A DNA stretch of 64,000 nt from Thermoplasmata archaeon (GCA_049802875.1 JBARNH010000007.1:67194-131193), one strand, 5' to 3'; counted from the stretch's first letter, positions 1 through 20,796 are shown. The notes: generated from the sequence alone by a model not told the origin. Numbers and translations are program-made.

Positions 1-19
1 CCATCGCGGCGACCGTCCG

Positions 20-1396
20 CTAGGGCGCCTCCACCGAGTACATCCGCCACTCCCCTTCCAAGCCTTTCAGGCTTCGCATCCCACGATCCGAGAACCGCAC
101 GTCAGAGCCGACGGAGAGGTCCCGGACGGTGCCGGAAACCAGGACTTCACCGTCAGCGGCCTCCCGGCTGACCCGGGCGGCGATGTGCACGGCTATGCCC
201 TGAACATCCCCATCCTTGAGGACGCACTCGCCTGTGTGGAGACCGGTGCGGATTTCCAATCCGGCCTTCCGAGCTTGGTCTCGGAGCGTGCACGCGCACC
301 GAACAGCCCGGGTTGGGCCGTCGAAGATCGCGAGGATCCCGTCGCCGGTCGTCTTTATCGTCCTGCCTTGGAAGCGGGCGGTTTCGGTGCGCGCATCCTC
401 CAGGAATCGGTTGAGCAGATCGCCCCAAGCCCGATCCCCCAGGTTGGCCGCCCGACGCGTCGACTCGACTACGTCCGTAAAGAGGACGGTGGTCAGGACG
501 CGGTCGGTCTCGGGGACGTCCGACAAGCCCCGAAGGAAATGGTGGATCTCGTCGAAGACAACCTTCGTCTGCTCGGAGGAGAGCCAGAAGAGATGGTCCT
601 GGCCGGGCGTTTCCACTAGTTGTGCACCCGGGATGTGAGCGGCCAGGTACCGTCCGTGCTCCAAGCTCACGGCTCGGTCGCCTTTGCAGTGCAGAATGAG
701 CGTCGGTACGTGCACGGCCCCGAGTACGGGCCGCACGTCGATCTCCATGTTCATCCGGGCGAGCGCCTCCCCGGACGCGGGGGAGCCACCGTTTCGCACC
801 AGTCGACCCAACCACCGCTTGAATTCGGCATCATCCATCCGACTGGGAGCAATCTCCGAAGTCAGCCGGTCGATATGGGCTGGAGACCCCCATTCCCCAC
901 GATCCCTCCGAATGGCGCTCTCCCACTGTTCTCGGGTGGGAGCCCATGGACACTCCGCTGACCAGACCCCTGTGGCGAGCCCACTCATCAGGATCAGCGC
1001 GCGAGTTCGTTCCGGATAGGTGGCGGCGAATAGTATCGCCACAGAAGCGGCGTCCCGAGCCGCGACGAGGATGGCCCGCTTGGAGTCGACCGCGTCCAGA
1101 ACTGCGCGACCGTCGTCCATGCGCTGTTCGAGAGTGGCTACGCCGACGTCTCGGTCGGACAAGCCGGTTCCCCGCTTGTCGAATACGATCAGTCGCCCGA
1201 GAGAGGCGAGGGCCTGGTGGTAGCGAGCATTCAGGGGATGGTCCCAAGCAACCTCCAGATGGTAGACGCCGCTGCGGGCGAGAAGAAAGTCAACCGGGCC
1301 AGTTCCGAGGACCTGGTAGGCGATATTGACCTCCCCACTCGTCGCGTACTTCACCTCGGGCTGTTCCATGGAAAGGGAGGCGTTCGGGACAGGCAT
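20..1396 (-). CDS. alpha/beta-hydrolase fused to class III adenylate/guanylate cyclase catalytic domain
   Basis: 458-aa ORF. The N-terminal half has an alpha/beta-hydrolase fold (VFDKRGTGLSD, HG). The C-terminal half is a CHD cyclase domain (VLFTDVVEST...KTTGDGILAIF...GLHTGECV...GIAVHIAARV). Confidence 0.75.
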   Translation of the reverse strand: MPVPNASLSMEQPEVKYATSGEVNIAYQVLGTGPVDFLLARSGVYHLEVAWDHPLNARYHQALASLGRLIVFDKRGTGLSDRDVGVATLEQRMDDGRAVLDAVDSKRAILVAARDAASVAILFAATYPERTRALILMSGLATGVWSAECPWAPTREQWESAIRRDRGEWGSPAHIDRLTSEIAPSRMDDAEFKRWLGRLVRNGGSPASGEALARMNMEIDVRPVLGAVHVPTLILHCKGDRAVSLEHGRYLAAHIPGAQLVETPGQDHLFWLSSEQTKVVFDEIHHFLRGLSDVPETDRVLTTVLFTDVVESTRRAANLGDRAWGDLLNRFLEDARTETARFQGRTIKTTGDGILAIFDGPTRAVRCACTLRDQARKAGLEIRTGLHTGECVLKDGDVQGIAVHIAARVSREAADGEVLVSGTVRDLSVGSDVRFSDRGMRSLKGLEGEWRMYSVEAP

Positions 1397-1552
1397 TCCC
1401 GACCAATTTAATTGTAGGTCGGTCTGAACTTGGTGGCGGGCGGATGCGAGGGTCCACCCATGGCCGATTCCGGAACGAAGTGGGACGCGGAGATCGGTCG
1501 GTCTGACCGTGGCTGAGCGTACGCGGGGCCGCCCCCCGACACCGAGCGTAGC

Positions 1553-2929
1553 CTATCGGGCGGGTTGGATGTTCTGGTTGACGTGGAAAAAGTTCTTCGG
1601 GTCGAACTTCTGTTTTAGCGACGCCAATCGCTTGTAGTTTTCGCCGTAGGTCGCCTTGACGCGATCCTGCCCCTCGTCCATCATCATGTTCACGTACGCT
1701 CCCCCCATAGAGAACGGGTGGAGGGCCTCCCAGTAGCCCACGGTCCAGTCCCGGATCCTGTTGGCATTCGCCGGGTCCGGGTCGACGCCGATGATCGTCT
1801 CGGCCCAGCGAGCGTCGCGGTACGCCCACGGAGTGGCGCGCTTTCCGATCTTGGACGCAGCCCCGTCAATCGGGTAGAGGTGCATCGAGGATTGCATCGT
1901 CGGGGTTTTCGAGCCGTGCTGAACGTGCTGCGCAATCGCCTCGTCGCTCAACTCCTTGACAAAGTCCGCCCGCCAGTACCACTGGTGGCCGGGAGGGTAG
2001 AGCCCGTCGAAAGCGCTCTGCAGCGCGGGGAAGGGCGCAGAGTGGAGACCCCAGAGGGCTGGCGCTCCCACTTTCCGGAACGGGGCGAGCAGCCGTTCGG
2101 CCTTCTCGAGAGAGCCGAGGTAGCACCAAACCACGCCGCACATTTTCTTCCCGTGCAGAGACTCCGGAAACGGGGGGGCGGGGGGGACTGTGAGGAAAGC
2201 AAAGAATCCGTTCAGTTCTTCGGGAGCCTTTGGGATGAACTCGCGGTAGAACCGAAGGACCTCTCCCGCCTGGTCGATCGGCCACAGGACCGGACCGGCA
2301 GCGACGGTGTCGACCGGGTGGAGACGTAACGAGAACGATGTCACGACACCGAAGTTTCCCCCACCGCCACGGACGGCCCAGAAGAGGTCGGCGTGATGGT
2401 CCGAGTCGGCCGTGACAAAGCTGCCGTCAGCCAAGACGACGTCCACCTCGAGCAGATTGTCGATCGTAAGACCATGCTTGCGCGTTAGGTGGCCGAGGCC
2501 CCCGCCAAGCGTGAGACCACCAACGCCGGTGGTCGAAATCACTCCCGCCGGCGTAGCCATTCCGAAGGCGTGTGTCGCGTGATCCACGTCCCCCCACTGA
2601 CAGCCACCGGCGGCTTGGACAGTACGAGCGGTCGGGTCCACGCGAACGCCCCGCATGAGGGAGAGGTCGATCATCAGCCCGTTGTCGACACTCGCCAGCC
2701 CGCCGCCGTTGTGGCCAGCGCCTCGCACGGCCACTTCGAGGCCGGTCTCATGCCCGAACTTGACGGCAGAGATCACGTCGGCAACATCTCGGCATCGAGC
2801 AATGACGGCGGGTCGCTTGTCAATCATGGCATTGTACAGCTTTCGCGTCTCCTCGTACTCGAGACTCGTCGGCGTGATCACGGGCCCGCGGAGGCTGCTC
2901 TGCAGGTTCGTCACTGCAGCCGGATCCAT
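1553..2929 (-). CDS. FAD-linked oxidase (PCMH/BBE-like FAD-binding oxidoreductase)
   Basis: The ORF-track ORF is 1553..3169. The likely start is the ATG at 2929 (MDPAAV...), not the upstream extension. FAD-binding PCMH motifs: AVRGAGHNGGGLA, GGLTLGGGLGHL, RGGGGNFGVVT. BBE-like C-terminus. Confidence 0.75.
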   Translation of the reverse strand: MDPAAVTNLQSSLRGPVITPTSLEYEETRKLYNAMIDKRPAVIARCRDVADVISAVKFGHETGLEVAVRGAGHNGGGLASVDNGLMIDLSLMRGVRVDPTARTVQAAGGCQWGDVDHATHAFGMATPAGVISTTGVGGLTLGGGLGHLTRKHGLTIDNLLEVDVVLADGSFVTADSDHHADLFWAVRGGGGNFGVVTSFSLRLHPVDTVAAGPVLWPIDQAGEVLRFYREFIPKAPEELNGFFAFLTVPPAPPFPESLHGKKMCGVVWCYLGSLEKAERLLAPFRKVGAPALWGLHSAPFPALQSAFDGLYPPGHQWYWRADFVKELSDEAIAQHVQHGSKTPTMQSSMHLYPIDGAASKIGKRATPWAYRDARWAETIIGVDPDPANANRIRDWTVGYWEALHPFSMGGAYVNMMMDEGQDRVKATYGENYKRLASLKQKFDPKNFFHVNQNIQPAR

Positions 2930-3224
2930 CGAGGGCCCCAAGAGCGGGAGGGGCACTTGATACCTTGGGTTACATCCGGCACTATTCGGACTCCGGAGGT
3001 TCGCGGCGCGGTGTCTGCAATGGTCATTGCACTTCAGCCCACTTTCGCCGAGAGGGGTAGACCAGTCATTGCTCTGGGTATCCTCGCAGCGGCGTCGGTC
3101 GATCGGATGCGACCTCCAGTTCGTTTGGTGTTGTCCAACTCGAGGGTTTGGTATTCTAGATGCGTTCAATTCCGAGAGCGACTCCGAAAGCGAGGATGTC
3201 GTTGGGCACGGAGGTCAACGCATC

Positions 3225-4841
3225 TTACGAGACGAATCCCAACAAGCACCGAGGATCACCTAGGGACACGGGTGATAACCCCCCTAGCCAGGGCAATGGG
3301 TGTTCGGAGTGGAGGACACACGGAAGGTAAACTAGGTCCAGGACACGCGGCGAACTAGCTCGAAGCTGAGTCGAGGCCTTCGGGTTAGTTGCCCGGACGT
3401 CGTTGACGTAGAGCTGCACGAGCCTCAACGCCTCGGCTTCCGTCGTCAACGGCGGAATGGCCTGTTGCCCAGGAATTGAGTACGACCCCACCCCCTGCAA
3501 AATCGCGGACAACCCTCCGCTCTGACTGATCTTCTGCTCCTTACCCGAAACACGACCATAGTAACCGGTGAGCGGTCGATTTCCACCGCGGGCAGAGAAG
3601 ACGTCTGTCAGGACCCGGAAGCTGCCCGCACCGGCCAGCGTGGTTACGTCGGTGGAGAAAGTGGCGGCAACGAGCAACACCTCGGGAACCTCTTTTCCCC
3701 GCTTCGTCCAGAGGACTCCGGTTTCGAAGGTATACGGAAGCTCCACGACCCAGAAGGGGACGAAAGTTCCGCCTCCGACGTTCAACAACTTAACTGCCCC
3801 TCTCCCCGACTGTGCGGCGCGAACCTCGGCTGCGCGTCGAAATATTTCCTCCTGGAATTTCAGGGACCGAAACGAAGTGGTCCAATCGCTCGGGGCGCTC
3901 CGTGAGAGCCAATCTACCACCGAGCCAAGTCTTTGGAGATACGCCAGTGGATGCGGGGGCACATTCAGAGAGTTTTCGGAGAGGTTGATCATGGAATTAA
4001 CCATCCGGATGACAGTCAGTTCCTGATCGACCGCCGTGGTCATGTACCCTAGTTCGGGGATCGATGACAAAGCTGTTCGCGCCGTTTTTAGTTCGCCCTC
4101 CGCCGCTCCGAGCAGTTTGCGGGGTAGTTCGAATTCCCGCCCTGTTACCAACTGGTCGACCGCCTTGCACTCCTCAGTAAGCCCGGCCAGCCGAGTCGAT
4201 AGGGCCGGCCAACGGCCTATGCTGGCGATTGCCTCCGAAGCCGTTGCGAGATTCTGCGAGATAAGATGAAAACGCTCGGGGTGGTTGCTCTGAGAAAGCT
4301 TCTCGACGACCAGGAGTGATTGATAGCAGGATGCCAGTCCGCTGGCTCGACGGATGAGCTCTCGAGCAGTCTCATCTACGGCCAGAGCTGAAATGGATTG
4401 TACTTTCGCATTGAAAACGGACACGGCTGCCGGGTTTTCACCCGAAGATGGGCGAAGGCTCGATATGAACGGAAGTGAGGCCAGCGGGGACGAGAGAAGT
4501 TGGAAGCAACGAAACCGGTACTGATCGCTTTCAGTGCTAAGGTGGGGCCGAATACCCGTGTTGAAGGCGGCGAGACGTGCCATTGGGTCCACATACTGCG
4601 ATCCCGAGACATCGAGACCCGGTGGAACCGTTTGTCGAACGAACGCTGTGACCTGGGCCATGAAATGGTCGAGAAATTGACGGGCATCGACGATTCTCTG
4701 CGATGTCCCGCAATAATCGCACGTTAGTATCTCTCCCTCGGAACGCGGGGAATAGGGAGCGCCGCATGCACTGCACCTTAGCCTATATTCGGAGAACATC
4801 GCGTCGGGCGCGAGCTGGCTGGTCGCTCCTACTCCCGTCAT
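3225..4841 (-). CDS. hypothetical protein with N-terminal CxxC-N13-CxxC zinc ribbon
   Basis: 538-aa ORF. The N-terminus reads CSACGAPYSPRSEGEILTCDYCGTS. No recognisable catalytic motifs. GC is lower than the surrounding DNA. It lies 33 bp downstream of ORF 4874..5968 on the same strand. Confidence 0.6.
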   Translation of the reverse strand: MTGVGATSQLAPDAMFSEYRLRCSACGAPYSPRSEGEILTCDYCGTSQRIVDARQFLDHFMAQVTAFVRQTVPPGLDVSGSQYVDPMARLAAFNTGIRPHLSTESDQYRFRCFQLLSSPLASLPFISSLRPSSGENPAAVSVFNAKVQSISALAVDETARELIRRASGLASCYQSLLVVEKLSQSNHPERFHLISQNLATASEAIASIGRWPALSTRLAGLTEECKAVDQLVTGREFELPRKLLGAAEGELKTARTALSSIPELGYMTTAVDQELTVIRMVNSMINLSENSLNVPPHPLAYLQRLGSVVDWLSRSAPSDWTTSFRSLKFQEEIFRRAAEVRAAQSGRGAVKLLNVGGGTFVPFWVVELPYTFETGVLWTKRGKEVPEVLLVAATFSTDVTTLAGAGSFRVLTDVFSARGGNRPLTGYYGRVSGKEQKISQSGGLSAILQGVGSYSIPGQQAIPPLTTEAEALRLVQLYVNDVRATNPKASTQLRASSPRVLDLVYLPCVLHSEHPLPWLGGLSPVSLGDPRCLLGFVS

Positions 4842-4873
4842 AGCTTCCTCTCTACGTACTGCAATCCCGGCCC

Positions 4874-5968
4874 CTAAGACCCCGATGCATGCTGCAATCG
4901 ATGCTCCATCGCACGCATTTCACGCATTAGCCGATCTTCAACCTGGCTCACTCGTTGAACTGCGATCCGGTCCGCCAGGTCGCCGATCGCCGAGTAGCAG
5001 CCCTTGCAGACGTAGACATACCGGCCGGACCGATCCATTGAAGGGAGTGGCGACGTGCCATGGAGGTTCAATCCAGTGGCTTCCTTGTCGACTGTGAGTG
5101 AAACGAATTGGACACCATGACCAGTCCCCTCCCTTCCGCACACCCAGCATTTGGCTTTCAACGCAAGATTGCCTGATTTGATCGCCGCACTCTGGGCGTT
5201 GTCATCGTAGCCCGCCTGCGCCCAGTACTGCTGGGCAGTTTGGAAGTGCTCGGCGGCAGTCATTGGGTCGGTGCCTTCGAGAGATTTCCCCAATACCTCG
5301 AACGACAGGGCCATCAATATCGGCGCTTGAAAATCCGCCGGAATGGCTCGATGCTCAAGAAGTTCAGGGAGGTAAAGGACCTTGTTTCCCAACTGGCGAT
5401 ATTCGTCGGCGAGGCTCTGGAGGCCCTGTGCCAAACTCTCGGGATTGCCAGACTGGGAGCGAGCCATGGCCGTCAGGCTGGCGTACCGTGCAGTCAGCTG
5501 CAATTCGTTCGCCAATTCACTAGAACTGGTCCCTCTCGCCCCAAGTTTGAGCTCAATCGTTCCGGGAATGTTTTGGAGCAGCGAAAATAGTGCCATCAGC
5601 GAGGATGGATCCGAGTTTCTCACTGCGCTCGAAAGTAGGTTGGTGTAGGCCGTCGCGACGTTGGCGTACAAGAGGTTACCCTCTCGCGAAAACTTTCGAG
5701 TTGCATCGATGAACTTCTCACTGGCCCTCGAATGATCGCCGCGTCGGGCAAGGTCGAGGCCTTGCTCCAACGTCGCAGCCCCATCCTTGATGATCGGCAC
5801 AGGCAGAGGACCGACCATAGAATCTGTCTCTTCCAGCGTATAAAAGGCACTGAAGCTCAGGTCGTATCGTTCCCTGGGCTGAATCGAGCCCCGGAGGGGT
5901 TCCTGCATCTCGGATGAAGCGGACCACTCTGCTCCCGCGCTGGTGCGGCACGGGCACGATCGGTGCAA
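4874..5968 (-). CDS. hypothetical helical protein with C-terminal CxxC-N35-CxxC zinc ribbon
   Basis: 364-aa ORF. Alternative starts are at 5908 (MQEPL) or 5818 (MVGPL). The body is alpha-helical (TPR-like); the C-terminus has CWVCG...YVCKGC followed by a charged tail. It is probably co-transcribed with 3225..4841. Confidence 0.55.
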   Translation of the reverse strand: MHRSCPCRTSAGAEWSASSEMQEPLRGSIQPRERYDLSFSAFYTLEETDSMVGPLPVPIIKDGAATLEQGLDLARRGDHSRASEKFIDATRKFSREGNLLYANVATAYTNLLSSAVRNSDPSSLMALFSLLQNIPGTIELKLGARGTSSSELANELQLTARYASLTAMARSQSGNPESLAQGLQSLADEYRQLGNKVLYLPELLEHRAIPADFQAPILMALSFEVLGKSLEGTDPMTAAEHFQTAQQYWAQAGYDDNAQSAAIKSGNLALKAKCWVCGREGTGHGVQFVSLTVDKEATGLNLHGTSPLPSMDRSGRYVYVCKGCYSAIGDLADRIAVQRVSQVEDRLMREMRAMEHRLQHASGS

Positions 5969-5982
5969 TCAACCGCGCAGCC
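5961..5982. repeat. palindromic motif copy (degenerate)
   Basis: CGGTGCAATCAACCGCGCAGCC. Confidence 0.3.
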
Positions 5983-6010
5983 AGTCCTGACGACAAGGGT
6001 CCCTCGGGTG

Positions 6011-6029
6011 GGTGCAACGGTCGTTGCAC
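6011..6029. repeat. GGTGCAA-Nx-TTGCACC family palindromic motif
   Basis: GGTGCAACGGTCGTTGCAC (N4 spacer variant), upstream of the Zn-ribbon gene pair. Confidence 0.5.
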
Positions 6030-6489
6030 GCATCTGGCTATCGCCCGCGCTGGGATCGCGTATCCGAATCCCGTTTTCGAGCGGTTAACGAGACCCTTGC
6101 TCGCCAGGTATTTATTCCGGGTAGCTCTTCGCACTGTTGGAGGGCACAGAATCGAAGTAGATGCGGGGAGGCGGGAGCTTCTCAACTGGACCCCGGGAAC
6201 GGCCCGGGTTACGCCTTGGTTGGGGCGAGAATCCGGTCTGCTAATATCAATTGTTAAAATCAACTTTGAGCCCGATTAACGGGGCGTAAAACCTGAACTA
6301 AATCTGGACCACTTCTACGTGTGCTTCTGTAAGGAAGCTTCCGAGACGATTCACTAATCGACCCTTATTCCGATAACCATCTTAGCAAACAGGGAAGACT
6401 TCGAAACACAACCGCGCCTCGACCGTCCGAGCGAGAAGGATCTCTCGACTCTAGCGTCGCCCAAGGTTCGAGCCCGAAGGAAGCAGAAT

Positions 6490-6906
6490 ATGGCGACGAG
6501 GATTGGAGAAGAGGGAGAGCGCGAGACACCGCCGCCCGAGCAGAGGGGGAGACTTCTGCGCCCAAGCACCGTAGCAGTGCTGAAACAAGCCCTTCAGCAC
6601 TACTTGGAGCACGAGCGTGACTTCGTGGACGCTTACTTCCCCGAAGTCGCGAGACGCGGATACGTGACATGGGGGGATGTGTTTGGACTGAGCGACCGAC
6701 AAGCGGATGCATGCCGCCCAATATTGTTGGAAAGCATCCGACACTTCTTGAAAGAGGATGCCAGAGAGCGGAACCGCAACGTCCACCTGTTGACCCGCGA
6801 ACCGGTCGATCCAAACTTCGTTTCTTTCCCCGCCCGAAAGGCGAAGGCTTGGACAGAGGCGCTTCGCGACCTCTGCAACGTTTTCGGGCTGGAGTGCTTG
6901 GGATAA
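6490..6906 (+). CDS. hypothetical protein
   Basis: 138-aa ORF with balanced amino-acid composition. GGAAG lies 8 nt upstream of the ATG. It is followed immediately by a perfect hairpin plus T-tract. Confidence 0.5.
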   Translation: MATRIGEEGERETPPPEQRGRLLRPSTVAVLKQALQHYLEHERDFVDAYFPEVARRGYVTWGDVFGLSDRQADACRPILLESIRHFLKEDARERNRNVHLLTREPVDPNFVSFPARKAKAWTEALRDLCNVFGLECLG

Positions 6907-6923
6907 ATCGGACGGCGGGCCAC

Positions 6924-6960
6924 GGGACCCTCCCTGAGGGAGGGTCCCATTATTTTCCCG
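6924..6960 (+). terminator. intrinsic-terminator-like hairpin (GGGACCCTCCCT-G-AGGGAGGGTCCC) followed by ATTATTTTCCC
   Basis: A perfect 12-bp inverted repeat at 6924-6948, then a T-rich tract, 18 nt after the stop of ORF 6490..6906. Confidence 0.5.
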
Positions 6961-7535
6961 CTAAATCTGTGCTCTCTCTACCCCACTGATTAAGATCTGT
7001 TGGAAGGGTTTGAACCCATGTATGTTGAATGCCTATTGCACCCAATGATCCCTCGTGTGAACTGTGCCGTGTTCCAAACGGGCCCGTTAATCACGCGGGC
7101 AACTTCGGTGGAGGGGAACTTGGGGCCAGTAGTCCTCGCACATACTCGGCTGTCCCGCTCCGACAAACGGTGGTCGAGCGTCGCCCTGACTCTATCAGGA
7201 ACTGGTAGACACTCGGCGGACACCAGTGTCAGGCTATCCGGCCAAAGACGACCCCGAATGCGTGCCCTAGCACCCCATTAAATCCAGAGCCCTAGCAACG
7301 AAGCCCTGGACGATCAATGCGACCCTGCTGGTAAAAAATGGGTAGAAGGTCACGCCGAGGGGGAAGACGGCGACACCTCCCATGTACCCGACGATGGTGG
7401 TCCGGCTCGAATCAGACCGGCCCAGGCGTTGTTCCCGATAATTGGGAAATCATCCCGGTGCCGAACGGAGGGACTTCCTATCGGAGATAGCAAGACCCGG
7501 GTCCGTGTCGTCCAGGAACCATGACGTCGCCACGG

Positions 7536-9155
7536 CTAACTTGCGTCGACCGAGACCATGCTCACGCTGTGCTGGAAGGAGTTGGTGACAAGGAGCTCTC
7601 CATTCCCATTGTCAGACGCCTCGCCATAGGAGCCGCTATCTACCGGGACGATGGCGAGGACCTGGTTCGTCGCAGCCGAGATTATACTCAGCAAGTTACC
7701 TGTCGCGAAGACGTCTCCTGTCACGCTGTCATAGGCGACCGCGAAGGGATTGGGCTCGACCGCTATGGTTGCCACCACCGTGTTCGTCACGTCCGAGATC
7801 ACGCTCAGGTTGGCTGAGCCGGCGTTCGAGACAAAGATCTCTCCCTGGCTACTGTCATACGCGACGCCGAATGGATAGTCTCCCATCGGGATAGTAGCCG
7901 CCACCTCATTCGTCGTGGCTGAGATGACGCTCACACTGTCCGAACCCGGGCTGGCTACGAAGAGCTCGCCCTTTCCACTGTCGTACGCGACGGCTACCGG
8001 TCCACTTGCCACGGCGAGGTTCGCCACCACCTGGTTGGTCGCGTCCGAAATCACGGTCACGTTGTTGCCGCTCGTGACGAACAACTCCCCATTCGCGGGG
8101 TCATACGCCACGCCCATGGGATAGGAGCCCACGGAGATCGTCGAAACCACTTTGTCCGTCAGGGCGGAGATCACCGTGACGAGGCTCGCGCCCCACTCCG
8201 TTACGAACACCTCTTATTTCGCGCTATCGTAAGCGGCGTAACTGGGAAATTCTGGGTACGGTACCGGGATCGACGTCACGACTTTGTTGGTGGTCGCGCT
8301 AATTACGGTCACCTCGTCCACGTCGCTGACCGCAACGAAGAACTCGCCCTTCGCCGGATCGTACGCAACACCGCTGGGGAGATACCCCACGGGGATACTC
8401 GTCACGACTCGGTACGCCGGCTCCCGATCGATGAAACCGGCGCGGGAGTTGGAGAACGCAAAGATCCCCAGGACGTCCGCCCGATTCTGGCCGCCGCCGT
8501 CGTGATTAGTCGAAGTTTCCGTGAAGGAGTAGGTTCCGGACGCGAGCTGCGACTCGCCAATCAGCACCCCCGACCAGGTGCCGCCGGTCCCATTTGACTC
8601 AATCACCAGCCCCGGAACGCCGCTCATAAGGATAGTGTTCTGCCCGCCACTCAGTGCGATCAGCACGACGAACGCAGACTCGGGCAAAACCAGTTTCTCG
8701 GTGAGGGTAGTGGTCGCTTGGACCGGTGGGATCGAGACCTTTGTCTTTTCCCCGTAGTACTGGAAACCGCTGACGGCAAAGCCTCCGATGGAAAATTGAG
8801 AGTCACTGGTCGTGTAGTTGTCGGAGGTCTCCTGAGTGACCGCGAGGGCCGCTGCGACGTTCCCATCCCGATCGACAGCGTTGACAAGGTCTCCAGACGA
8901 GAATCCGGTAGAGGGCTGGGTTCCCCCGTTGGCCATTCCGAACACGCTCAGCACGCCGGGGTACGCGAGCGTCTGAGAGTCCGCCCGGTTATGAACCGAG
9001 GGTCCAATGAGATGGGGAGTCGACGAGGTCGCACTGGTCAGTCCGGAGGTCGAGAGATCACGAACCGGTCCTGGGGCCGGGAGGGTGCCGGTCGACTGCG
9101 CAGACACGGACGGCAGTAGCATGACGCCGACAATCGCTACGACTGCGAGCAACAC
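7536..9155 (-). pseudogene. secreted YVTN beta-propeller repeat surface protein interrupted by an in-frame TAA (8214-8216)
   Basis: ORFs 8214..9155 (signal peptide MLLAVVAIVGVMLLPSVSA) and 7536..8210 are in the same frame, separated only by TAA-GAG-GTG. The YVTN repeat (VAYDxxxGE[LIF]FVxxxxxxxVSVISATTNxV) runs straight across the stop: AAYDSAK*EVFVTEWG. The stop sits where the conserved Gly falls. Confidence 0.55.
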
Positions 9156-9489
9156 GGCCGAATGAGCGACTCCACGTCGAGACGGGACCTTCCGCCGTCA
9201 TATCGTCACTTACATGTTCCTTTCGGACCCGAAGCGTCTCGGCGGCGGAGACGAAGTCGACCTTAATAAATCCCGTTGGCGGATCCTGTCGGCTGCGTGC
9301 TAACATGCCATGACCTCCCTTGACTATCGTCGGGCCGTCTAACGCTACCCTTGATGCTCGCCGCGGACCGAACCCACCCCGGCGTTCGAATCGGGTCGTT
9401 TCCGCCCACTGTAGGTCCGTCGCCATCGGTCGGCGCAAAGGAAGCCGGCCTAGTGTCCTTAAGGTAGGCTATCGAATACAGCAGTTCGG

Positions 9490-10593
9490 ATGCGCGCGGT
9501 CTTCGCGGCTGTCATCGCCCTAGCGTTGATCTTGTTGACCGGCTCGACGCTTGTGAGTCCGACGGCGCACGATGCTGCCAGTGTTTATACGAACATGGCC
9601 ACGGTCGCGGGTTTCTCTGGGACTGGGACGAACTCCGCTGAGCTAGACACCTACCCGCTGACCTTCACGGAGAGCGGGCTGCCATCGGGAACGAACTGGT
9701 CGGTTAGTCTCAACGATACAACACGGAGCGCGGCGTTGCCTACGATTACCATCGCGGAACCGAATGGGACCTATCAGCTCTACACTTGGGATGTAAAGGG
9801 TTACACGAGCTACTCCAACGTGACGACTCTCAAGGTCAGTGGCGCTCCGATGGACATCACGGTGTACTACACGCCGCCGCCGGCCGGCTTTTACTTTGTA
9901 ACGTTCGTTCAGACAGGGCTGTCCTTTAACGTCGTTTGGGAGGTCCAGCTTTCCGCTATCATCAACGGGACCACCGAACCTGGCGGATTCGGCCAGAATT
10001 ACTTCGGCCCGACCCATACTCCCTCCGCGCCCTACGGAGTCGAAAACGGCACATTCGCTTGGACGGCCTTCCACCCCAGCGTACCAGAGTACCCCATCCC
10101 CACGTACTTTCCGTTTCCGTCTAGTGGGACGGTGGTCGTTAACGGGTCCAGTGTGCTCATCGACCTCGCGTACCGCTACTCCTATCCGTTCTACTTCGAC
10201 GTAGAGGGACTCCCGACCACCGTCCCATTGACCCTACAGATACTCAACGAAACGACAACCGGAAGCGGCAGCGCCGAGTACCTCCTCATGATTCCGAACG
10301 GCACGTTCGAGTGGAACGCCACTGCGCCAGGGTACCAACCGCAAAACGGAACTATCTCCATTCAGGGCATGCCGGAATTCAACGTCAAGGGGATCTCCTT
10401 CGAGGCACTTCCTTCGGCGACGAACCCGCCGTGGGCATGGGTCGAGATCGGTGTGGTCATCGCGGCAATCGGCGTAGGCGCGGCAGCCTTCCTTTTGAGG
10501 TGGCGCAAGGGCGGCGGTCGAATGCGCGAGGGTCAATCTACACCAATCGCTTCTACTCCACCGCCCTCACAACAGCCGCCGTCTCCCCCGTAG
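9490..10593 (+). CDS. secreted, C-terminally membrane-anchored glycoprotein (hypothetical)
   Basis: Signal peptide MRAVFAAVIALALILLTGS. More than 10 N-x-S/T sequons. A TM helix near the C-terminus (WAWVEIGVVIAAIGVGAAAFLL) is followed by a basic and then Pro-rich tail. Confidence 0.65.
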   Translation: MRAVFAAVIALALILLTGSTLVSPTAHDAASVYTNMATVAGFSGTGTNSAELDTYPLTFTESGLPSGTNWSVSLNDTTRSAALPTITIAEPNGTYQLYTWDVKGYTSYSNVTTLKVSGAPMDITVYYTPPPAGFYFVTFVQTGLSFNVVWEVQLSAIINGTTEPGGFGQNYFGPTHTPSAPYGVENGTFAWTAFHPSVPEYPIPTYFPFPSSGTVVVNGSSVLIDLAYRYSYPFYFDVEGLPTTVPLTLQILNETTTGSGSAEYLLMIPNGTFEWNATAPGYQPQNGTISIQGMPEFNVKGISFEALPSATNPPWAWVEIGVVIAAIGVGAAAFLLRWRKGGGRMREGQSTPIASTPPPSQQPPSPP

Positions 10594-10750
10594 CGCATTG
10601 CATCAGGGCCGGGCTTTTCTGGATGAGCGCGTATCGGACCTTTTGAAAGCGCCTGCGCCTCTTCAAACCATTCACGCCCTTTCGAACGAGGCGGGGTTTA
10701 CACCCTGGGGGAGTGTCGACTGCTGTATGGGCGCACCTCGGCGGTGACTC

Positions 10751-10770
10751 GGTGCAATGAAGTTTGCAAC
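10751..10770. repeat. GGTGCAA-N6-TTGCACC family palindromic motif
   Basis: GGTGCAATGAAGTTTGCAAC. First of a tandem doublet. Confidence 0.6.
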
Positions 10771-10787
10771 TGCTAGATCCGCCGATT

Positions 10788-10807
10788 GGGTGCAAAGTGT
10801 TTGCGCC
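10788..10807. repeat. GGTGCAA-N6-TTGCACC family palindromic motif
   Basis: GGGTGCAAAGTGTTTGCGCC. Second of the doublet. Confidence 0.5.
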
Positions 10808-11242
10808 GCTTTTCGAGGACCCGATCCTCGCACTGAAGAGTTGGTCTCGCTGGTCCCAAATAGGAAGGGCGGGCTAAACGTGCCGTCGTTAACATTCTGT
10901 TCCGAACAGCGTTAATTAACGATTTCTCGTTAGTCAACTTCATCAGCTTCTTCGAGGCCTAAGAGGCGAACTTCCCCTTGGGGAATCGAAGCTGCGACCG
11001 AGACTCCGCATCGAAGGGGAAGCAGCTGTCCCCGCCGACGTGTTTGGTGGGCCTTGTGCAACGCGCCTCGCGCCAAAGACCTGCCCAGGAGCGCCCCCGT
11101 CGACGTGAATCCCTCGCAAAGCGTCCGACCTAATCGCAGTTGGGAGTTCCGCCTCTGAAGCGCGGCCAACAACGGGATCATCAAGGGGGCATCGTTCATT
11201 TGCTTACCTAAGCTTATGTAAGGAAACTATTGTGTCCCCACC

Positions 11243-12367
11243 GTGCAGCCCTACGATCCACAACGTCCGGCGAGCCCCGGGACGTTTGCCGGACGTCACG
11301 AACTGTTGGAGTTCGCCGGCAATGCTCTGCGGGTCGCCGCGACACTTCATCGCGGGAGCGCGATTCTGCTTTACGGGTACCGGGGGAGTGGTAAGACCTC
11401 GGCCCTCCGAAAGATTCAATCCATTGTTAGAGACACTACCCCACACGGCGTTGTTATTGAAGTTCCACTCCGTGTGCCTAGCACAGAAGCGATGCTGGTC
11501 CACAGCATCGCCGAGATGGTACGTCGCGAAGTGACGTCCCAGGAAAAACTCACAAGCCGGATGAAGAAAGCGCTCGGAAACCTGAGCGCGGTAACGGTTC
11601 TGGGGAGCGGGATCGAGCGAACGAAACCACTACCCTTCACGCCCTCCACACTCCTCACAGTGTGGAAGGACGCACTCCTTGCACTCGGGGATCTGCCCCT
11701 TTTGGCAATCAGCATCGACGACGCCGAGCTTCTCAAGGCCGGCGAAATTGGGATTCTCAAGACGATGGTTGAAACAGACTCTCCAGTGCCGATTCTGATG
11801 GTGGTTGCTGGTGGACCTGAGCTCATCGAGAAACTCTCTCTTCGCGAAGCGTCACCAATCCTTCGGTCGTTCTCGGGTGCAGTCTTTGACATCGGCCAGT
11901 TCTCGGAGGTGGAAACTCTGGAGGCCCTGGAAGCCCCCGTTAAACAGATCAAGGGGACCGGACGGTGGGACGCCTCGGCGGTTAAGGCGATTCACCATCT
12001 GACACACGGATACCCCTACCTGGTGCAATGCTTCGCGGCGGCGGCATATCAAGACAGTCGACGCATCAAGGGTGAAGACGTTCAACGGGCGATCCCTGGA
12101 GCCATGCAACTGGCTTCGAGCTGGCTCGAACGCGAGCTTCCGGAAGCCTCAGACGAAGACATCAGGGCATTCGCCAAAATCGCCACTTCAGGCAAAGTCG
12201 AGTTTCGAAGTTCCGACGCCATCCGGATGGGCATCAATCACATCTATCTCTCAAGGCTCACTACTCAAGGAGTCCTCAAGCGGCTGGCCCGGGGTCATTA
12301 CGAGCTTCGAATGGCGCCCGCGATCGCATACTTTCACGCGCTGAGGCGAGGGCTAAGCGCAGTCTGA
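11243..12367 (+). CDS. AAA+ ATPase of the archaeal-ATPase (Arch_ATPase-like) family with C-terminal winged-helix-like region
   Basis: Walker A YGYRGSGKTSAL. Walker B LLAISIDDAEL. Overall architecture resembles orphan archaeal ATPases. An AT-rich region lies upstream. Confidence 0.65.
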   Translation: MQPYDPQRPASPGTFAGRHELLEFAGNALRVAATLHRGSAILLYGYRGSGKTSALRKIQSIVRDTTPHGVVIEVPLRVPSTEAMLVHSIAEMVRREVTSQEKLTSRMKKALGNLSAVTVLGSGIERTKPLPFTPSTLLTVWKDALLALGDLPLLAISIDDAELLKAGEIGILKTMVETDSPVPILMVVAGGPELIEKLSLREASPILRSFSGAVFDIGQFSEVETLEALEAPVKQIKGTGRWDASAVKAIHHLTHGYPYLVQCFAAAAYQDSRRIKGEDVQRAIPGAMQLASSWLERELPEASDEDIRAFAKIATSGKVEFRSSDAIRMGINHIYLSRLTTQGVLKRLARGHYELRMAPAIAYFHALRRGLSAV

Positions 12368-12537
12368 GTCACTGTAGGCGGTAGCTTCGAAGCGGCCAAG
12401 ACCAGAGCTTGAGTGGGCATGCGGCCGCCTAACCGATTGTTAGGAAAGATTAGGTAAGGAAATGTTGGACTTGCCCGTCGACCCCCGTCCTAGCTTCGGC
12501 GTTTGAGGGATGGCTCGTGGGCACTCAAAGCGAGAGT

Positions 12538-12559
12538 GGGTGCAATGAAGCTTGCACCC
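12538..12559. repeat. GGTGCAA-N6-TTGCACC family palindromic motif
   Basis: GGGTGCAATGAAGCTTGCACCC. Between convergent genes. Confidence 0.65.
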
Positions 12560-12633
12560 ACTCCGAATCTGCTGACTCGTTGCGAGGCTGCATCAGGCGT
12601 TCGGAAAGGGGTCCCTTTCGTGTGGGCGTGAGG

Positions 12634-13146
12634 TCACAACGTTGGTGCCGAGTAACTGTAACTCAGGCTTCCACTGACGGTCACCACCGAGAAGGGGCAG
12701 GGCACTACGGGTGAGTTTGCCATAATCTCCAGACAGAAGACGTAGATCGACGCCGTGGAATCGACTCCGAATCTTCCCGCCTGGCCCCCATAGGTCAATC
12801 CATGGTAGAGCGTTGCCCGAGTTGAGTTGTTGGTGGAGTTGTAGACTGTCAGGTACGTCGGATTGCCGTTCGGCACGTACCAGGTGAAGCTGTAAATCCC
12901 GGTTTGGTAGAAGACCGTACCTTGACAGGAAGGCGCGGAAGTGTTCGAGGGAATCGTAATGAGGATCACGTAGTCTGCGGTCGCCGGGTGCGAGACAGGG
13001 ACGATGAAAAGAAATCCCAAGACCGATCCGATGACGACCCCAACCGCGATCGCGTAAGTCCATCTGGGTCGTTTGGGGGGCCGTCGCCACCAACCCCCCG
13101 GCGCACCTTGATGAGAGTCCTCCATCGTTGGGCAGGGTAAGGACAC
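12634..13146 (-). CDS. hypothetical membrane-anchored extracellular protein
   Basis: 170-aa ORF with an N-terminal TM segment (YAIAVGVVIGSVLGFLFIV) and N-x-S/T sequons. The overlapping alternative frame 12593..13168 is less protein-like. Confidence 0.45.
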   Translation of the reverse strand: MSLPCPTMEDSHQGAPGGWWRRPPKRPRWTYAIAVGVVIGSVLGFLFIVPVSHPATADYVILITIPSNTSAPSCQGTVFYQTGIYSFTWYVPNGNPTYLTVYNSTNNSTRATLYHGLTYGGQAGRFGVDSTASIYVFCLEIMANSPVVPCPFSVVTVSGSLSYSYSAPTL

Positions 13147-13267
13147 AGACCCGCTTGGCGTCTTGCATTAAATGGGCTGGTTTCCGAATGGATGGTCCTC
13201 GTCACGGAGCATCGAACCGGTTTGTAACGAGCGAATTGCGTAATGGGAAGCTCGTTCGGGTTGAGGT

Positions 13268-13289
13268 GGGTGCAATAGCACTAACACCC
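13268..13289. repeat. palindromic motif copy (degenerate 3' half)
   Basis: GGGTGCAATAGCACTAACACCC. Confidence 0.4.
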
Positions 13290-13570
13290 ATCACTCAGCA
13301 TTAGGTGTAATCGAGCCTGCGGCCAAAACTCTGATTCGCGCGAGAAGCCATTCTCGGGAGCGGAGTGCGGCAGACCGCCAACCCAGCGTTGACAATCCGC
13401 GTAAATTCCATTCGTTTCGTTCGGGAATCTGATTGGCGCCTCTGACCGCGTATTCGGCCACACACCCCCGCGCCAGAGTTGTGACGCGGATCAGAAGCAT
13501 GGCCGCCACAACCGACCGCTGCGTTCTAATAATATGAAACCGCATCAATGCGCATCATCCGGGCTTCCAT

Positions 13571-15301
13571 GTGGCTCCCTCGCGTCCCCTAGCCAGCGAC
13601 CCAGCTCGCCATCTCGGCCGGTTCGGGACTGGTACAAAGTTCGCCGCGATCGCTTTCACCTTGCTGCTGATTGTAGTCGGAGCGTGGTGGGGGCTCAGCG
13701 AACGCCCTTCGGCGGGAGCTGGTGGCCAGCCCGTCGGCCCTCCCGCCGCCGCATCTCCGCCCGAAATCAAGCGCTTCCTTTGGGCACCCTCCAGCTTCGA
13801 GGTCAACAATACAACCAAGGGAGTGGTCACCACATCAGCGGGTCAGGGGCCCTACTCGTACGTTTGGTATGGCCTGCCCGACCCGTGTACGTCCCAGAAT
13901 TCATCCAATCTCTCTTGCGCCCCTTCCGTCGCCGGGACCTACAATGTGACGGTCACCGTGAGCAACGTGGCGGGATTCGCGTCAGATTCCGCCGCAATGA
14001 CTGTCAGCCCCTCCTCCCGTAACGTAACGCCGCCGCGTCCCAGTGGGCTGAATGTGACGTTGGTTAGTGGCAGGGAGATCGACGCAGCGGGTCAATCCTA
14101 TTTCGGGGTGGTGGCCCAAACGAACTGCTACAACTGTATCGCGGGGGCGGACGGACTCTATCTGAACGAGACCCCCTACGATGACATTCGGTACGGGCAG
14201 GGGGGCGATTCCTGTGACGTGGTCAACAATTCGTTCTACCAGAACGGAATCGTCGTGGGCCACTGTCCCTTTTCCATCAGCGCCCTCAAGCAATGGTGCT
14301 ACTCCACCACCCCCCACTGCAACTGGTATGTCGGAATGCCGGCCGAGATCAACAACCCGGGTTACGCGGGGTACGAAGCCAAGTGGCTGGTGGATACCAT
14401 GGGTTTTCCTCCCACGTACTGGTCGATCGGGAACGAACCTGAGAGCTATACGAACTGGAACTGTGCTTGGACCACGTGGGCGACCTGCAAGGGTACTCCC
14501 ACCGCGGAACAATGGGCGACGGAGGTCCTAGCGTACTCGCAAGCAATCCGGGCGGTCGTTCCCTCTGCGAAGATCATCGGCATCCAGGCGGTCGGTTCGT
14601 ACTCCACTTTCATTCCAACGCTCGCGGCGTCGCCCGCGGCGAAGTATCTGTACGCCATCGCTTTTCACGATTATCCGCCCCCGGCGGGAAGTAGCGAGAC
14701 CGACTACCTCTCCTCAATCACCGGCCAATACGCGCTGACCAACGAGGTGCAGGAGGTCCGGGCGGGGATCACCGCAGTGAATGCCTCGATGGCGAACCTG
14801 CCCATCTTCGTGGGTGAGTTCAACGGCGGGCCGTGTCCCATCCCTTCTCCCTTTGACCAAGGTTTCCCGGACGTTCTGCTGTACATGGGAACGGTGATCC
14901 AGGGGCTCCAGGCCAATCTGTCCGAGCTCGACTACTTTGCCTTGGCGAATGACGGTTTCTCGTTGGTGGGCACGAATTTCACTCCTTATCCCACCGGAAC
15001 GTGGATGACGGAGATGCACGGAGTTCGGTACGGTGACGCATACGACTACACCATCACCGGGGATGTGCCCGACGTCTGGTCGATCGAGTGGCGGGATGGA
15101 ACAAACGAGACTTTGATGGTGGTCAATGCCAACACGTCCGAACAATTGTCGCTCAGTGTCGGCACGAATTTCACCGAGGGATCCTTGGGCCACACGGTCT
15201 TCTGGAACGGGACCACCAGTGAACCGGAGGTGTCCGCTCTGCCGCTCCCGCAATACTACGCCGTTCCCCCAGAGTCCATTCTTCTAGTGGAGAACTACTG
15301 A
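13571..15301 (+). CDS. membrane-anchored extracellular glycoside-hydrolase-like protein (clan GH-A-like TIM barrel)
   Basis: GTG start. N-terminal signal anchor FAAIAFTLLLIVVGAWWGL. A PKD/Ig-like segment. WSIGNEPE (acid/base NEP motif) and FVGEFNGG (nucleophile GE[FY]). Many N-glycosylation sequons. Confidence 0.55.
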   Translation: MAPSRPLASDPARHLGRFGTGTKFAAIAFTLLLIVVGAWWGLSERPSAGAGGQPVGPPAAASPPEIKRFLWAPSSFEVNNTTKGVVTTSAGQGPYSYVWYGLPDPCTSQNSSNLSCAPSVAGTYNVTVTVSNVAGFASDSAAMTVSPSSRNVTPPRPSGLNVTLVSGREIDAAGQSYFGVVAQTNCYNCIAGADGLYLNETPYDDIRYGQGGDSCDVVNNSFYQNGIVVGHCPFSISALKQWCYSTTPHCNWYVGMPAEINNPGYAGYEAKWLVDTMGFPPTYWSIGNEPESYTNWNCAWTTWATCKGTPTAEQWATEVLAYSQAIRAVVPSAKIIGIQAVGSYSTFIPTLAASPAAKYLYAIAFHDYPPPAGSSETDYLSSITGQYALTNEVQEVRAGITAVNASMANLPIFVGEFNGGPCPIPSPFDQGFPDVLLYMGTVIQGLQANLSELDYFALANDGFSLVGTNFTPYPTGTWMTEMHGVRYGDAYDYTITGDVPDVWSIEWRDGTNETLMVVNANTSEQLSLSVGTNFTEGSLGHTVFWNGTTSEPEVSALPLPQYYAVPPESILLVENY

Positions 15302-15437
15302 TCCCACACGTAGCTCCTCTCGCGAACAATGCGCATAGTGGTCAGCGCGCGACGAATTCAACTTCCGAACTGCACCAATCCTCCGTTCGAAGGTTAAGTG
15401 GTGCATCACCTACAAGTTGGATTTCCGCGCATACCTT

Positions 15438-15459
15438 GGGTGCAAAGCCGCTTGCAACC
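15438..15459. repeat. GGTGCAA-N6-TTGCACC family palindromic motif
   Basis: GGGTGCAAAGCCGCTTGCAACC. First of a tandem doublet. Confidence 0.6.
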
Positions 15460-15475
15460 ACTCACCACGCCGGCT

Positions 15476-15497
15476 GGGTGCAATAGTACTTGCTCCC
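15476..15497. repeat. GGTGCAA-N6-TTGCACC family palindromic motif
   Basis: GGGTGCAATAGTACTTGCTCCC. Second of the doublet. Confidence 0.55.
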
Positions 15498-15590
15498 ACC
15501 AGCGAGGGGATGCCAGGATATGGGGGGAGTTCACGACCACTTAGCGGAATGCCAAGGTTGGTCTCGACTGCCCAGAGACTCAGTGCGAAG

Positions 15591-16313
15591 TCATGCTGGT
15601 TCAATCGAACTGACAGGAATGCAACTCTGGACCATGTTGGCGAAACGCGACCAGCGAGAGAGGTTTGTCCGGCTTTCAGGGCTGCCTTGAAGCAATCTCG
15701 ATAACGTGTCGACATACGTCTTCCGATCGTTGACGCGACTCAGCACCAACTTGAACTTCCTCAGAGCAACTGACTGGAGGAACCGGCCGAACAGCTCACG
15801 GACCTCTCCTAGATTGACTTCCTGACTCATGATGCCGAAGAGATCGGTGAGGTCGTGGGGGCGTCCGGCTAGGAGCTTCGTCGCCCACAGCCCTTCCAAG
15901 CGCACCACATCCACCTGACTGCTTAGGGGCCCGGAGAGAAGCTCGAGGCGAACGGACCGTGGGCTACGAAGCAGCCAATCTCCGGGGATGGTCACGCCCG
16001 AGTCTCTGTCGCGCACCCCGCCTATCATCAGGTCTAGCGTGATCGCCCGATATTCCCATCGTTGAACCTCGAGGCTGGCTCTCCCTTGGTGGAAAACACG
16101 ATGCCCCGGGGCCAACAGTAGGTGGTGAGATTTTAGCCAGTCGGCCCAATCAACCCTACTCCGTTCGGAGACGACGACGTCGACATCAACCGAGTACCGT
16201 GGGGTGCCGTAGGCGGCGACCGCGTAGCCACCCACAACCACGCCATCGAGCTCCGTCGGCCAAGCCTCGAGCAGCCTGGCTACCTGGAGCTCACGCTGAT
16301 CCGCGTCGATCAT
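15591..16313 (-). CDS. abiEii: AbiEii-like nucleotidyltransferase (type IV toxin-antitoxin toxin candidate)
   Basis: The ORF-track ORF is 15591..16454. The likely start is the ATG at 16313 (MIDADQ...). It has the pol-beta NTase motif GG-x13-DVDV (VVGGYAVAAYGTPRYSVDVDVVV). It overlaps the upstream wHTH gene by 23 nt. Confidence 0.55.
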   Translation of the reverse strand: MIDADQRELQVARLLEAWPTELDGVVVGGYAVAAYGTPRYSVDVDVVVSERSRVDWADWLKSHHLLLAPGHRVFHQGRASLEVQRWEYRAITLDLMIGGVRDRDSGVTIPGDWLLRSPRSVRLELLSGPLSSQVDVVRLEGLWATKLLAGRPHDLTDLFGIMSQEVNLGEVRELFGRFLQSVALRKFKLVLSRVNDRKTYVDTLSRLLQGSPESRTNLSRWSRFANMVQSCIPVSSIEPA

Positions 16314-16875: not shown

Positions 16876-16879
16876 TTAT

Positions 16880-16915
16880 TATCGGAACTATTATTTAATA
16901 ATTGTTATCATTGGG
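16880..16915 (-). promoter_or_regulatory. AT-rich TATA-like promoter element for abiEi-abiEii
   Basis: TTATTATCGGAACTATTATTTAATAATTGTTATCA lies immediately upstream of the minus-strand start codon, in an otherwise ~65% GC background. Confidence 0.45.
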
Positions 16916-17023
16916 AGGTCGATTTCTCGCCGGAGGCTGCGCCACGCGATAGCCGAAGTCGAGACGCTCCGATGAGGGCGGCTCACGGGTCGGAAAGGTG
17001 CAACGCCCATTGCGCCCGGGTCT

Positions 17024-17632: not shown

Positions 17633-17813
17633 CAGGCCAATTCTGCGGAGTTCCTTCTTGACACGAGATTGGGCCTGTTGGACGTCACTTGCGACCACAC
17701 CCTCGGAATCGTCGCCTAAGAGATGAAAGATTGGACTCAGATACTTTCGTTCAGGTAGGTGTAACGAGTCTTGCACCCACAACGAAGAGCGGGTGGCGAG
17801 GTGAGCTGAGTAC

Positions 17814-18323: not shown

Positions 18324-18382
18324 GGTCTTCCTCCCTATCGCAACTGCAACTTCCGCTCTAGAATAAACTTGACTCGATTATC

Positions 18383-18403
18383 GTTGCAACGCTACTTGCA
18401 CTC
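18383..18403. repeat. GGTGCAA-N6-TTGCACC family palindromic motif
   Basis: GTTGCAACGCTACTTGCACTC. Confidence 0.55.
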
Positions 18404-20790: not shown

Positions 20791-20796
20791 TAGAGT

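Follow-up and report, generated by a model that had tools for sequence, protein, structure and literature searches.

The region at positions 3200–7535 of a 64-kb stretch of DNA from an uncultured Thermoplasmata archaeon (hereafter the window, meaning the whole stretch that was analyzed) is neither a single island nor a decayed integrated element. It is composed of two juxtaposed units of differing history. The first is a pair of minus-strand genes, P2 (4874–5818, 314 amino acids) and P1 (3225–4841, 538 amino acids), which form a strictly linked, clade-restricted, and probably old two-gene module. The second, at 5902–7535, has no homology with the closest relative and holds the plus-strand gene P3 (6490–6906, 138 amino acids), which is lineage-specific at this position. 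Overall, we favor with moderate confidence an account in which two unrelated units have come to lie side by side in a variable stretch of a Thermoplasmata chromosome. An earlier note, made from the sequence, had described two zinc-ribbon genes and a 138-residue gene within a low-GC (guanine plus cytosine) island of possibly foreign origin. The three genes are real, with one zinc ribbon each in P1 and P2, and they match, at 100% protein identity, NCBI entries WA691_05945, WA691_05950, and WA691_05955, which belong to a metagenome-assembled genome. The window also matches a contig of the Logan assembly.

Homologues of P1 form 69 clusters at 36–86% identity and those of P2 form 48. Both are confined to Thermoplasmata, including Methanomassiliicoccaceae and Candidatus Methanoplasma (31–33% identity). 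Genomic context was sampled from metagenome contigs and from 25 loci of GTDB species representatives. In all 29 distinct loci compared, 22 of which are GTDB loci (every GTDB locus that includes upstream DNA), the gene immediately before P1 on its strand is P2. This adjacency holds across 31% to 91% identity, and the GC content of the module tracks that of its host over a range of 58–71%, with no consistent offset. The conserved pairing and the host-tracking GC are therefore a poor fit to recently acquired foreign DNA.

The surroundings of the module are informative as well. In one subclade, the order UbiA, PcrB, DUF2070, P2, P1, peptidase M20 is kept in five loci (four GTDB species). At a more distant locus (L003), the genes within 10 kb of the module, namely a Znu-type ABC transporter, an iron-dependent repressor, and a major facilitator superfamily transporter, are found in the window at 19–20 kb and 53–57 kb, and the module neighbors of another (L014) recur at 47–48 kb and 57–58 kb. 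Identities of P1 and P2 to these two genomes are 52–62%, compared with 45–79% for the other shared genes. They are thus similar to or below those of other shared genes, as vertical descent predicts. The adjacency, host-like GC, subclade synteny, dispersed neighbors, and identities together argue for long residence of the pair in the lineage rather than recent import of foreign DNA.

The family is small. A profile search of 1.84 billion representatives yielded 139 clusters at 50% identity, and the distant P1 matches among the 139 carry no Pfam domain or name; the GTDB loci represent 25 species. This weighs against the favored account, since the family may be patchy rather than core, and to call it core to all Thermoplasmata would overstate its spread. 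One module locus was found per genome; the two-contig genomes JOPF123 and UBA8695 carry partial copies cut at contig ends. In one GTDB representative (MFD09222.bin.2.162, L045 7040–9567), the P1 and P2 homologues are broken into several overlapping open reading frames (ORFs) or alignment segments, which suggests either frameshifts in a pseudogenized module or long-read assembly errors.

Comparison with close relatives brings in facts that sit less comfortably with long residence. The window and its closest relative (L009–L011), whose P1 and P2 proteins are 86% and 90% identical, share a single blastn block at 3193–5901 (2709 bp, 82.5% identity), with no alignable DNA on either side. On the minus strand, this block runs from 83 nt before the P2 ATG to 32 nt past the P1 stop. 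It comprises the P2 promoter, P2, P1, and 32 nt of 3′ flank, and is the sole part common to close relatives. About 8 kb of flanking sequence in L009–L011 has no match in the window, even at the protein level, except for one abhydrolase-cyclase gene. An independent close pair (L012 and L022) shows the same pattern, with a 2636-bp block at 82.9% identity (91% for P1 and 83% for P2 at the protein level) and no shared flanking genes. The homology boundaries fall 6–83 nt outside the module genes in both pairs. Two points here count against stable inheritance in place. Both independent pairs share only the 2.6–2.7 kb module, a pattern seldom expected under stable inheritance, and the abhydrolase-cyclase beside P1 in L011 is only ~52% identical to the window copy, while P1 is 86% identical. 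Because both close pairs share the module alone, relocation or exchange within the clade is possible.

A rival explanation holds that the module (3193–5901) is a floating cassette, recently moved or imported, through recombination or horizontal transfer, from another Thermoplasmata lineage of ~58–59% GC. The GC step at ~3200 and the restriction of homology to the module would both follow from such an origin. It agrees with the sharp homology boundaries and entirely different flanks in two independent pairs, with the divergence of the adjoining cyclase in L011, and with a module GC that is 2.7–3.4 points under the flanks in the window and L022 and 2.6 points over them in L009. The flanks in this subclade also include integrase, DpnI, SLFN/AlbA, HEPN, AbiEi/AbiEii, and HepT genes, so that integrase, restriction, or toxin–antitoxin-type genes are often close by. 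However, no terminal inverted repeats, att-like repeats, recombinase, or other mobility gene were found at the module ends. One module locus was found per genome, synteny is stable in the other subclade, and the GC has ameliorated to that of the host across the full 58–71% range. In addition, the P1 and P2 identities to L003 and L014 do not exceed those of other shared genes. We therefore consider a recent cassette possible, if rather unlikely. The homology pattern is also accommodated by a second reading, in which the module sits in the fast-turnover neighborhoods of its subclade. The module is the only DNA common to close relatives at its locus, which is a hint of cassette relocation or exchange.

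Two genes of the window, at 20–1396 and 20864–22828, encode an adenylate/guanylate-cyclase domain, in one case joined to an alpha/beta hydrolase and in the other to TPR repeats. The hydrolase-cyclase gene has homologues beside or near P2–P1 in L011 (~52%) and L014 (55%), and these are the sole trace of a conserved neighborhood in this subclade.

The sequence around the P2–P1 pair contains signals compatible with joint expression. A TATA-box-like TTTTATA (5839–5845, minus strand), read from the sequence, precedes the P2 ATG by 21–27 nt and falls within the stretch of ~100 nt with 82% identity to L009–L011. The two genes are separated by a 32-nt spacer (4842–4873, minus strand) with a Shine–Dalgarno-like GAGAGGAAG that ends 2 nt short of the P1 ATG. 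Immediately past the stop codon of P1, an imperfect 17-nt inverted repeat (3158–3225, minus strand) defines a hairpin, and the 100 nt past this stop fold at -28.3 kcal/mol (ViennaRNA), suggesting a 3′-end structure. The box, the spacer with its GAGAGGAAG, and the hairpin therefore fit one bicistronic transcript. P2 and P1 are probably transcribed together from the TATA box to give a leaderless mRNA, with P1 probably translated from the Shine–Dalgarno-like site in the spacer.

P1 has an N-terminal C4 zinc ribbon with invariant C23, C26, C41, and C44. In the structural model, this is followed by a long TPR/Bro1-like helical solenoid (residues ~86–344) and a C-terminal alpha/beta domain (~350–538), which carries the invariant motif PFW..ELPYTFETG..W. 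P2 is modeled with an N-terminal TPR/SNAP/Bro1-like helical domain, a C4 ribbon of the form CWxCGRE...CxxC (C220, C223, C267, and C270 in 310-residue numbering), and a 40-residue C-terminal helix. The AlphaFold 2 (AF2) models are confident, with a predicted local distance difference test (pLDDT) of 83 and a predicted template modeling score (pTM) of 0.79 for P1, and a pLDDT of 87 for P2. The possibility that P1 and P2 are paralogues was rejected on an hhalign probability of 0.3%.

Searches of Pfam, NCBIfam, PADLOC, and PHROGs with P1, P2, and P3 returned nothing beyond sub-threshold zinc-ribbon and TPR matches, and neither P1 nor P2 has a Pfam TPR repeat above threshold. Among 42 members of the P1 family and 33 of the P2 family, none matches the Bro1 domain (PF03097) even at E<=1. 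Foldseek against the PDB gave nothing at E<1 for P1 and no significant whole-chain match (probabilities <=0.41). The most plausible weak match is the Bro1 domain of HD-PTP (probability 0.3–0.4), and generic TPR proteins score nearly as well. No signal peptide and no recognizable enzymatic domain (nuclease, ATPase, protease, pore) was found in P1 or P2. Both proteins can safely be described as TPR-like helical scaffolds that carry a zinc ribbon and lack any recognizable catalytic domain, and the modeled Bro1 resemblance is a lead rather than a sign of membership.

On this architecture, P2 and P1 would most likely form a cytoplasmic heteromeric adaptor or scaffold. Peptides or helices of partners may bind to its helical surfaces, while the zinc ribbons may dock the complex onto another macromolecule. 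Two considerations count against this proposal, namely that the fold matches go to generic helical repeats and that the P1–P2 interaction is itself a prediction. We know of no adaptors for the reduced Vps4/ESCRT-III system of Thermoplasmata. A more specific idea, that P2–P1 is an archaeal, Thermoplasmata-specific Bro1/SNAP-like two-subunit adaptor that recruits or regulates a membrane-remodeling or AAA-ATPase machine, such as Vps4/ESCRT-III, appears to us speculative and improbable. Thermoplasmata have only a minimal Vps4/ESCRT-III system, and no Bro1/ALIX orthologue is identifiable in Asgard archaea (PMC10936438). No ESCRT genes are seen near the module in the loci with domain annotation. With no family in Pfam, NCBIfam, PADLOC, or PHROGs, the P2–P1 pair is a modest lead for archaeal cell biology.

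TPR and zinc-ribbon modules are common in defense sensors, and the pair could be regarded as an undescribed two-gene antiviral defense or conflict system in a defense island. The module is compact, its surroundings are variable in the subclade, and its neighbors include AbiEi-like and AbiEii genes in the window, HepT with a nucleotidyltransferase in L001, and DpnI, SLFN/AlbA, and HEPN genes elsewhere. Nevertheless, P1, P2, and P3 have no match in PADLOC-DB, where the AbiEi-like protein at 11243–12367 was matched as a positive control. Neither P1 nor P2 has an effector domain of the kinds listed above, the neighborhood in the other subclade is of housekeeping type, and the deep divergence runs roughly in step with taxonomy, with ameliorated GC. 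A defense function is accordingly unlikely.

The neighborhood nevertheless resembles a variable or defense-rich region. An AAA ATPase with a C-terminal AbiEi-like domain is encoded at 11243–12367 and an AbiEii nucleotidyltransferase toxin at 15591–16454. A nucleotidyltransferase/HepT pair is located just past the left end of the window on the source contig (L001 19946–20514).

The second unit of the region, 5902–7535, is lineage-specific and carries P3, a terminator-like hairpin of its own, and an upstream element. P3 is a genuine gene, with 15 homologue clusters at 56–74% identity, 25 invariant columns, and coding-like GC at the three codon positions (0.65 / 0.44 / 0.68). It never stands beside P1 or P2 in the other loci examined. 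In five of the six distinct P3 loci, 459–910 nt upstream of the gene are free of called genes. The contexts vary, with P3 near PemK in L018, beside a resolvase and a PD-(D/E)XK nuclease in L047, and beside a TBP gene in L051. In L015 (3096–4135), the P3 homologue and the stop of a 206-residue gene with a CcdA-like N-terminus share 4 nt, an arrangement that hints at a toxin–antitoxin-like role for the family. In the window and in four other loci, P3 stands alone, preceded by a long non-coding spacer. The L015 contig, which also encodes endonuclease VII and has several genes without annotation, may be a mobile element.

A non-coding element upstream of P3 is more conserved than the gene that it precedes. 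It spans ~105 nt (6137–6242, plus strand), is predicted to form three hairpins that a short stem closes off, and is a candidate small RNA or 5′-leader. The element is common to three P3 loci (window 6137–6242, L020 2346–2453, and L051 1802–1908), that is, it accompanies P3 in three of six distinct loci, ~250–350 nt upstream of the gene. Between the window and L020, it is 83% identical over 98 nt, compared with 71% for the P3 coding sequence, while the remaining spacer is unalignable. A 2-nt indel between conserved sub-blocks shifts the reading frame, and the conservation is therefore not protein-coding. A TATA-like GGTATTTAT (6107–6115, plus strand) is located ~22 nt upstream of the element and may act as its promoter; it is identical in the window and L020 and is not conserved in L051.

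RNAalifold predicts 28 pairs in the element. These are mostly invariant, and the core helices show one-sided changes alone, so that support for the structure is weak. The RNA reading is further weakened by there being three distinct copies with almost no compensatory covariation, and a DNA-level site is also possible. Searching 44 sources, 548 kb of related loci in all, with a covariance model recovered the three training copies and weak matches that are probably due to chance. Exact-pattern scans found no instance in IMG/VR and one contig in the JGI metagenomes, identical to L020, and Rfam has no family for the element. We hold with moderate confidence that the element is functional, and with low confidence any assignment of its type. 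Most likely it would be a 5′-leader or small RNA regulating P3. A more speculative and improbable reading would make 6137–6242 a new structured RNA that serves the P3 family alone. As a non-coding element conserved above its gene, it is a modest lead for archaeal RNA specialists. Two P3 loci that lack the window-type element (L016 ~660–700 and L047 ~2440–2485) share another block of ~44 nt at 80% identity in their long upstream spacers, and the P3 family may carry alternative upstream elements.

Downstream of P3, a terminator scan located a hairpin at 6924–6957 (plus strand), 18 nt past the stop, in which an 11-bp GC-rich stem is followed by the T-rich ATTATTTTCC. Beyond it, the spacer between the convergent P3 and YVTN genes (6958–7535) contains no detectable gene, RNA family, or homologue, and has no blastn or tblastx match in any locus. 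Its ORFs have flat GC at the three codon positions (GC1/GC2/GC3), except for one at 7267–7383. Two further ORFs called in the Logan assembly, of 121 residues (5914–6279) and 87 residues (7018–7281), were rejected as non-genes on flat codon-position GC and absence of homologues; the former overlaps the conserved element, where the 2-nt indel breaks its frame.

The exception, on the minus strand, would encode a 38-residue hydrophobic peptide (MGGVAVFPLGVTFYPFFTSRVALIVQGFVARALDLMGC), and its GC at the three codon positions is coding-like (0.54 / 0.44 / 0.72). The YVTN gene upstream of this ORF has no C-terminal membrane anchor of the kind found in the neighboring surface protein at 9490–10593 and in the YVTN-like protein of L014. 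The peptide may be a small membrane protein or what is left of a detached anchor. The YVTN repeats themselves are divided between two minus-strand ORFs in the same frame, 8214–9155 (313 residues, with a signal peptide) and 7536–8210 (224 residues). A single TAA at 8214–8216 splits them inside a repeat unit ('...AAYDSAK*EVFVTEW...'; other repeats read 'AYDSGKGELFV'), which represents either a nonsense-mutated surface-protein gene or a translationally coupled pair. Pyrrolysine read-through was rejected, as the stop is TAA, not TAG.

The earlier note had suggested horizontal acquisition or a decayed integrated element for the whole region. A decayed virus, plasmid, or other mobile element spanning 3200–7535 could draw on several features. 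The region is the lowest-GC stretch of the window and contains 1.3 kb of apparently non-coding DNA. Relatives of P3 on other contigs adjoin resolvase, PD-(D/E)XK nuclease, CcdA-like, PemK, and endonuclease VII genes, and the neighboring YVTN gene is broken by an in-frame stop. Against it, domain searches found no integrase, recombinase, or other mobility gene in any ORF of 3200–7535. ARAGORN found no tRNA in the window, nor any tRNA fragment even at relaxed thresholds. The earlier note had likewise seen neither an integrase nor a tRNA fragment. The region also lacks meaningful direct or inverted repeats, with merely such short two-copy repeats as chance predicts.

Similarity searches agree. 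Phage and plasmid collections gave no blastn or tblastn match, profile scans of IMG/VR found no relatives of P1 or P3, and PHROGs gave no match, in collections where archaeal mobile elements are poorly represented. No Rfam family reaches the gathering threshold in the window. At E<=5, 5800–7700 has one match, at 20.8 bits against a cutoff of 53.1, which corresponds to the hairpin at 6924–6957 and reflects hairpin-level likeness alone. In tblastn searches of 5800–7700, nothing convincing was found for remnants of genes that adjoin P3 elsewhere or of the surface-protein paralogues of the window. Searches of 5800–7600 against all loci by blastn and tblastx matched P3, the 100 nt upstream of P2, and the conserved element, and nothing else. 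The clade-wide P2–P1 module makes up 60% of the block, and the tetranucleotide signature is normal. A decayed element covering the whole region is thus very improbable, and on these searches the reading as a virus or plasmid remnant is essentially excluded.

A possible tRNA 3′ half or att remnant was considered in the spacer, where a T-arm-like GGGTTCAAACCC is found on the minus strand near 7005–7016. It was rejected, since ARAGORN returned nothing at default settings or with -ps, thresholds of 80–90% gave only absurd intron-containing calls, and the tRNAs of the fetched loci had no meaningful blastn match.

Nor does the region behave as an insertion. Relatives hold 3193–5901 alone, and 5902–7535 and both outer flanks differ, so that no clean indel can be defined; half of the block is conserved everywhere and half is unique. 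What survives of the foreign-DNA proposal is that segments of differing history join here. The rest of it is not supported, given a small compositional shift, the lack of any island hallmark, and a conserved gene pair that occupies 2.6 of the 4.3 kb.

For all composition tests, the 64-kb window served as the host reference. By direct count, GC is 57.8% in 3200–7535, 61.4% in the rest of the window, and 61.1% in the whole, a deficit of ~3.6 points. The dip noticed by eye thus exists, and its estimated contrast (50–55% versus 63–65%) was overstated. Of the spots sampled then, 6240–6340 was correctly placed at ~40% (40.6%, the lowest 100-bp stretch in the window). The value for 4000–4100 is 55.4% rather than ~52%, and the comparison spot at 20000–20100 is an unrepresentative 71.3% rather than ~66%. 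The region is the lowest 4.3-kb stretch, with 1.8% of equal-sized windows as low, ~2 standard deviations (SD) under the mean; the exact minimum begins at 3050. Its left edge near 3200 is a real step, with 63.7% GC in 1–3200. The right edge is not sharp, as GC is 59.6% in 7536–27000 and 62.1% in 27001–64000.

GC-normalized tetranucleotide usage correlates with that of the window at r = 0.83, compared with 0.86 ± 0.057 for equal-sized windows (20th percentile). GC at third codon positions (GC3) is 0.636 in P1, 0.648 in P2, and 0.676 in P3, that is, 0.4–1 SD under the mean of 49 coding-like ORFs of the window (0.703, SD 0.064). Quantitative analysis hence confirms a local GC minimum, with a normal oligonucleotide signature and a codon GC3 within ~1 SD of the mean. 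The long non-coding stretches are also present, in an amount of ~1.3 kb rather than the ~1.1 kb first given, and in two gaps. These ORF-free gaps, 5819–6489 (671 nt) and 6907–7535 (629 nt), rank first and fourth in the window, where several others reach 500–650 nt. An AT-rich trough at 6220–6340 (40–45% GC) contains the lowest-GC 100-bp windows of the 64 kb; it lies in the divergent P2/P3 spacer, directly after the conserved element, and is consistent with promoter- or terminator-type intergenic DNA. The dip is thus accounted for by moderately low third-position GC in three genes and ~1.3 kb of AT-richer intergenic DNA. As a compositional island the region is unimportant, and it is not a candidate for horizontal transfer to be carried forward.

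At a larger scale, 3200–7535 is merely the lowest part of a broad lower-GC zone (3200–27000, 59.3%) that contains surface proteins and AbiE-type genes. The most atypical tetranucleotide stretch of the window is located elsewhere, at ~42500–49800 (r = 0.65–0.73 against the mean of 0.86), and deviates beyond 3200–7535. Within it, a 762-residue ORF (44515–46803) has an unusually high second-position GC (0.63).

Compared with known systems, the region resembles genomic islands and integrated elements in its local GC minimum, uncharacterized genes, long intergenic stretches, and flanks that vary among relatives. It differs from them in the modest size of the GC deficit (~3.6 points), a normal oligonucleotide signature, and a content that is mostly a clade-conserved gene pair, as well as in the absence of an integrase, a tRNA target, direct repeats, and virus or plasmid similarity.

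P1 shares an N-terminal CxxC...CxxC ribbon with stand-alone archaeal zinc-ribbon proteins (RPC12/RpoP-like), and two of its homologues are labeled 'DNA-directed RNA polymerase subunit RPC12/RpoP' at JGI. The resemblance covers ~25 residues, all Pfam ribbon matches are sub-threshold, and ~500 residues are unrelated to RpoP; the annotation is therefore misleading. Sequence identity of P1 and P2 to Bro1 domains (ALIX, HD-PTP, BROX, yeast Bro1), SNAP, and the SRP68 RNA-binding domain is 7–12%. Bro1 domains are boomerang-shaped, TPR-like solenoids of ~360 residues that bind C-terminal helices of ESCRT-III (CHMP4/Snf7). Relative to Bro1 proteins, P1 and P2 add zinc ribbons, and P1 also an alpha/beta domain, additions that to our knowledge have no counterpart in Bro1 proteins.

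The candidate RNA element upstream of P3 differs from established cis-regulatory leader RNAs and small RNAs in having no Rfam match, three distinct copies, and essentially no compensatory covariation. Like them, it is conserved above the adjacent coding sequence, always has the same orientation and spacing relative to P3, which it precedes, has predicted hairpins, and is preceded in two of its three copies by a TATA-like box at the expected distance.

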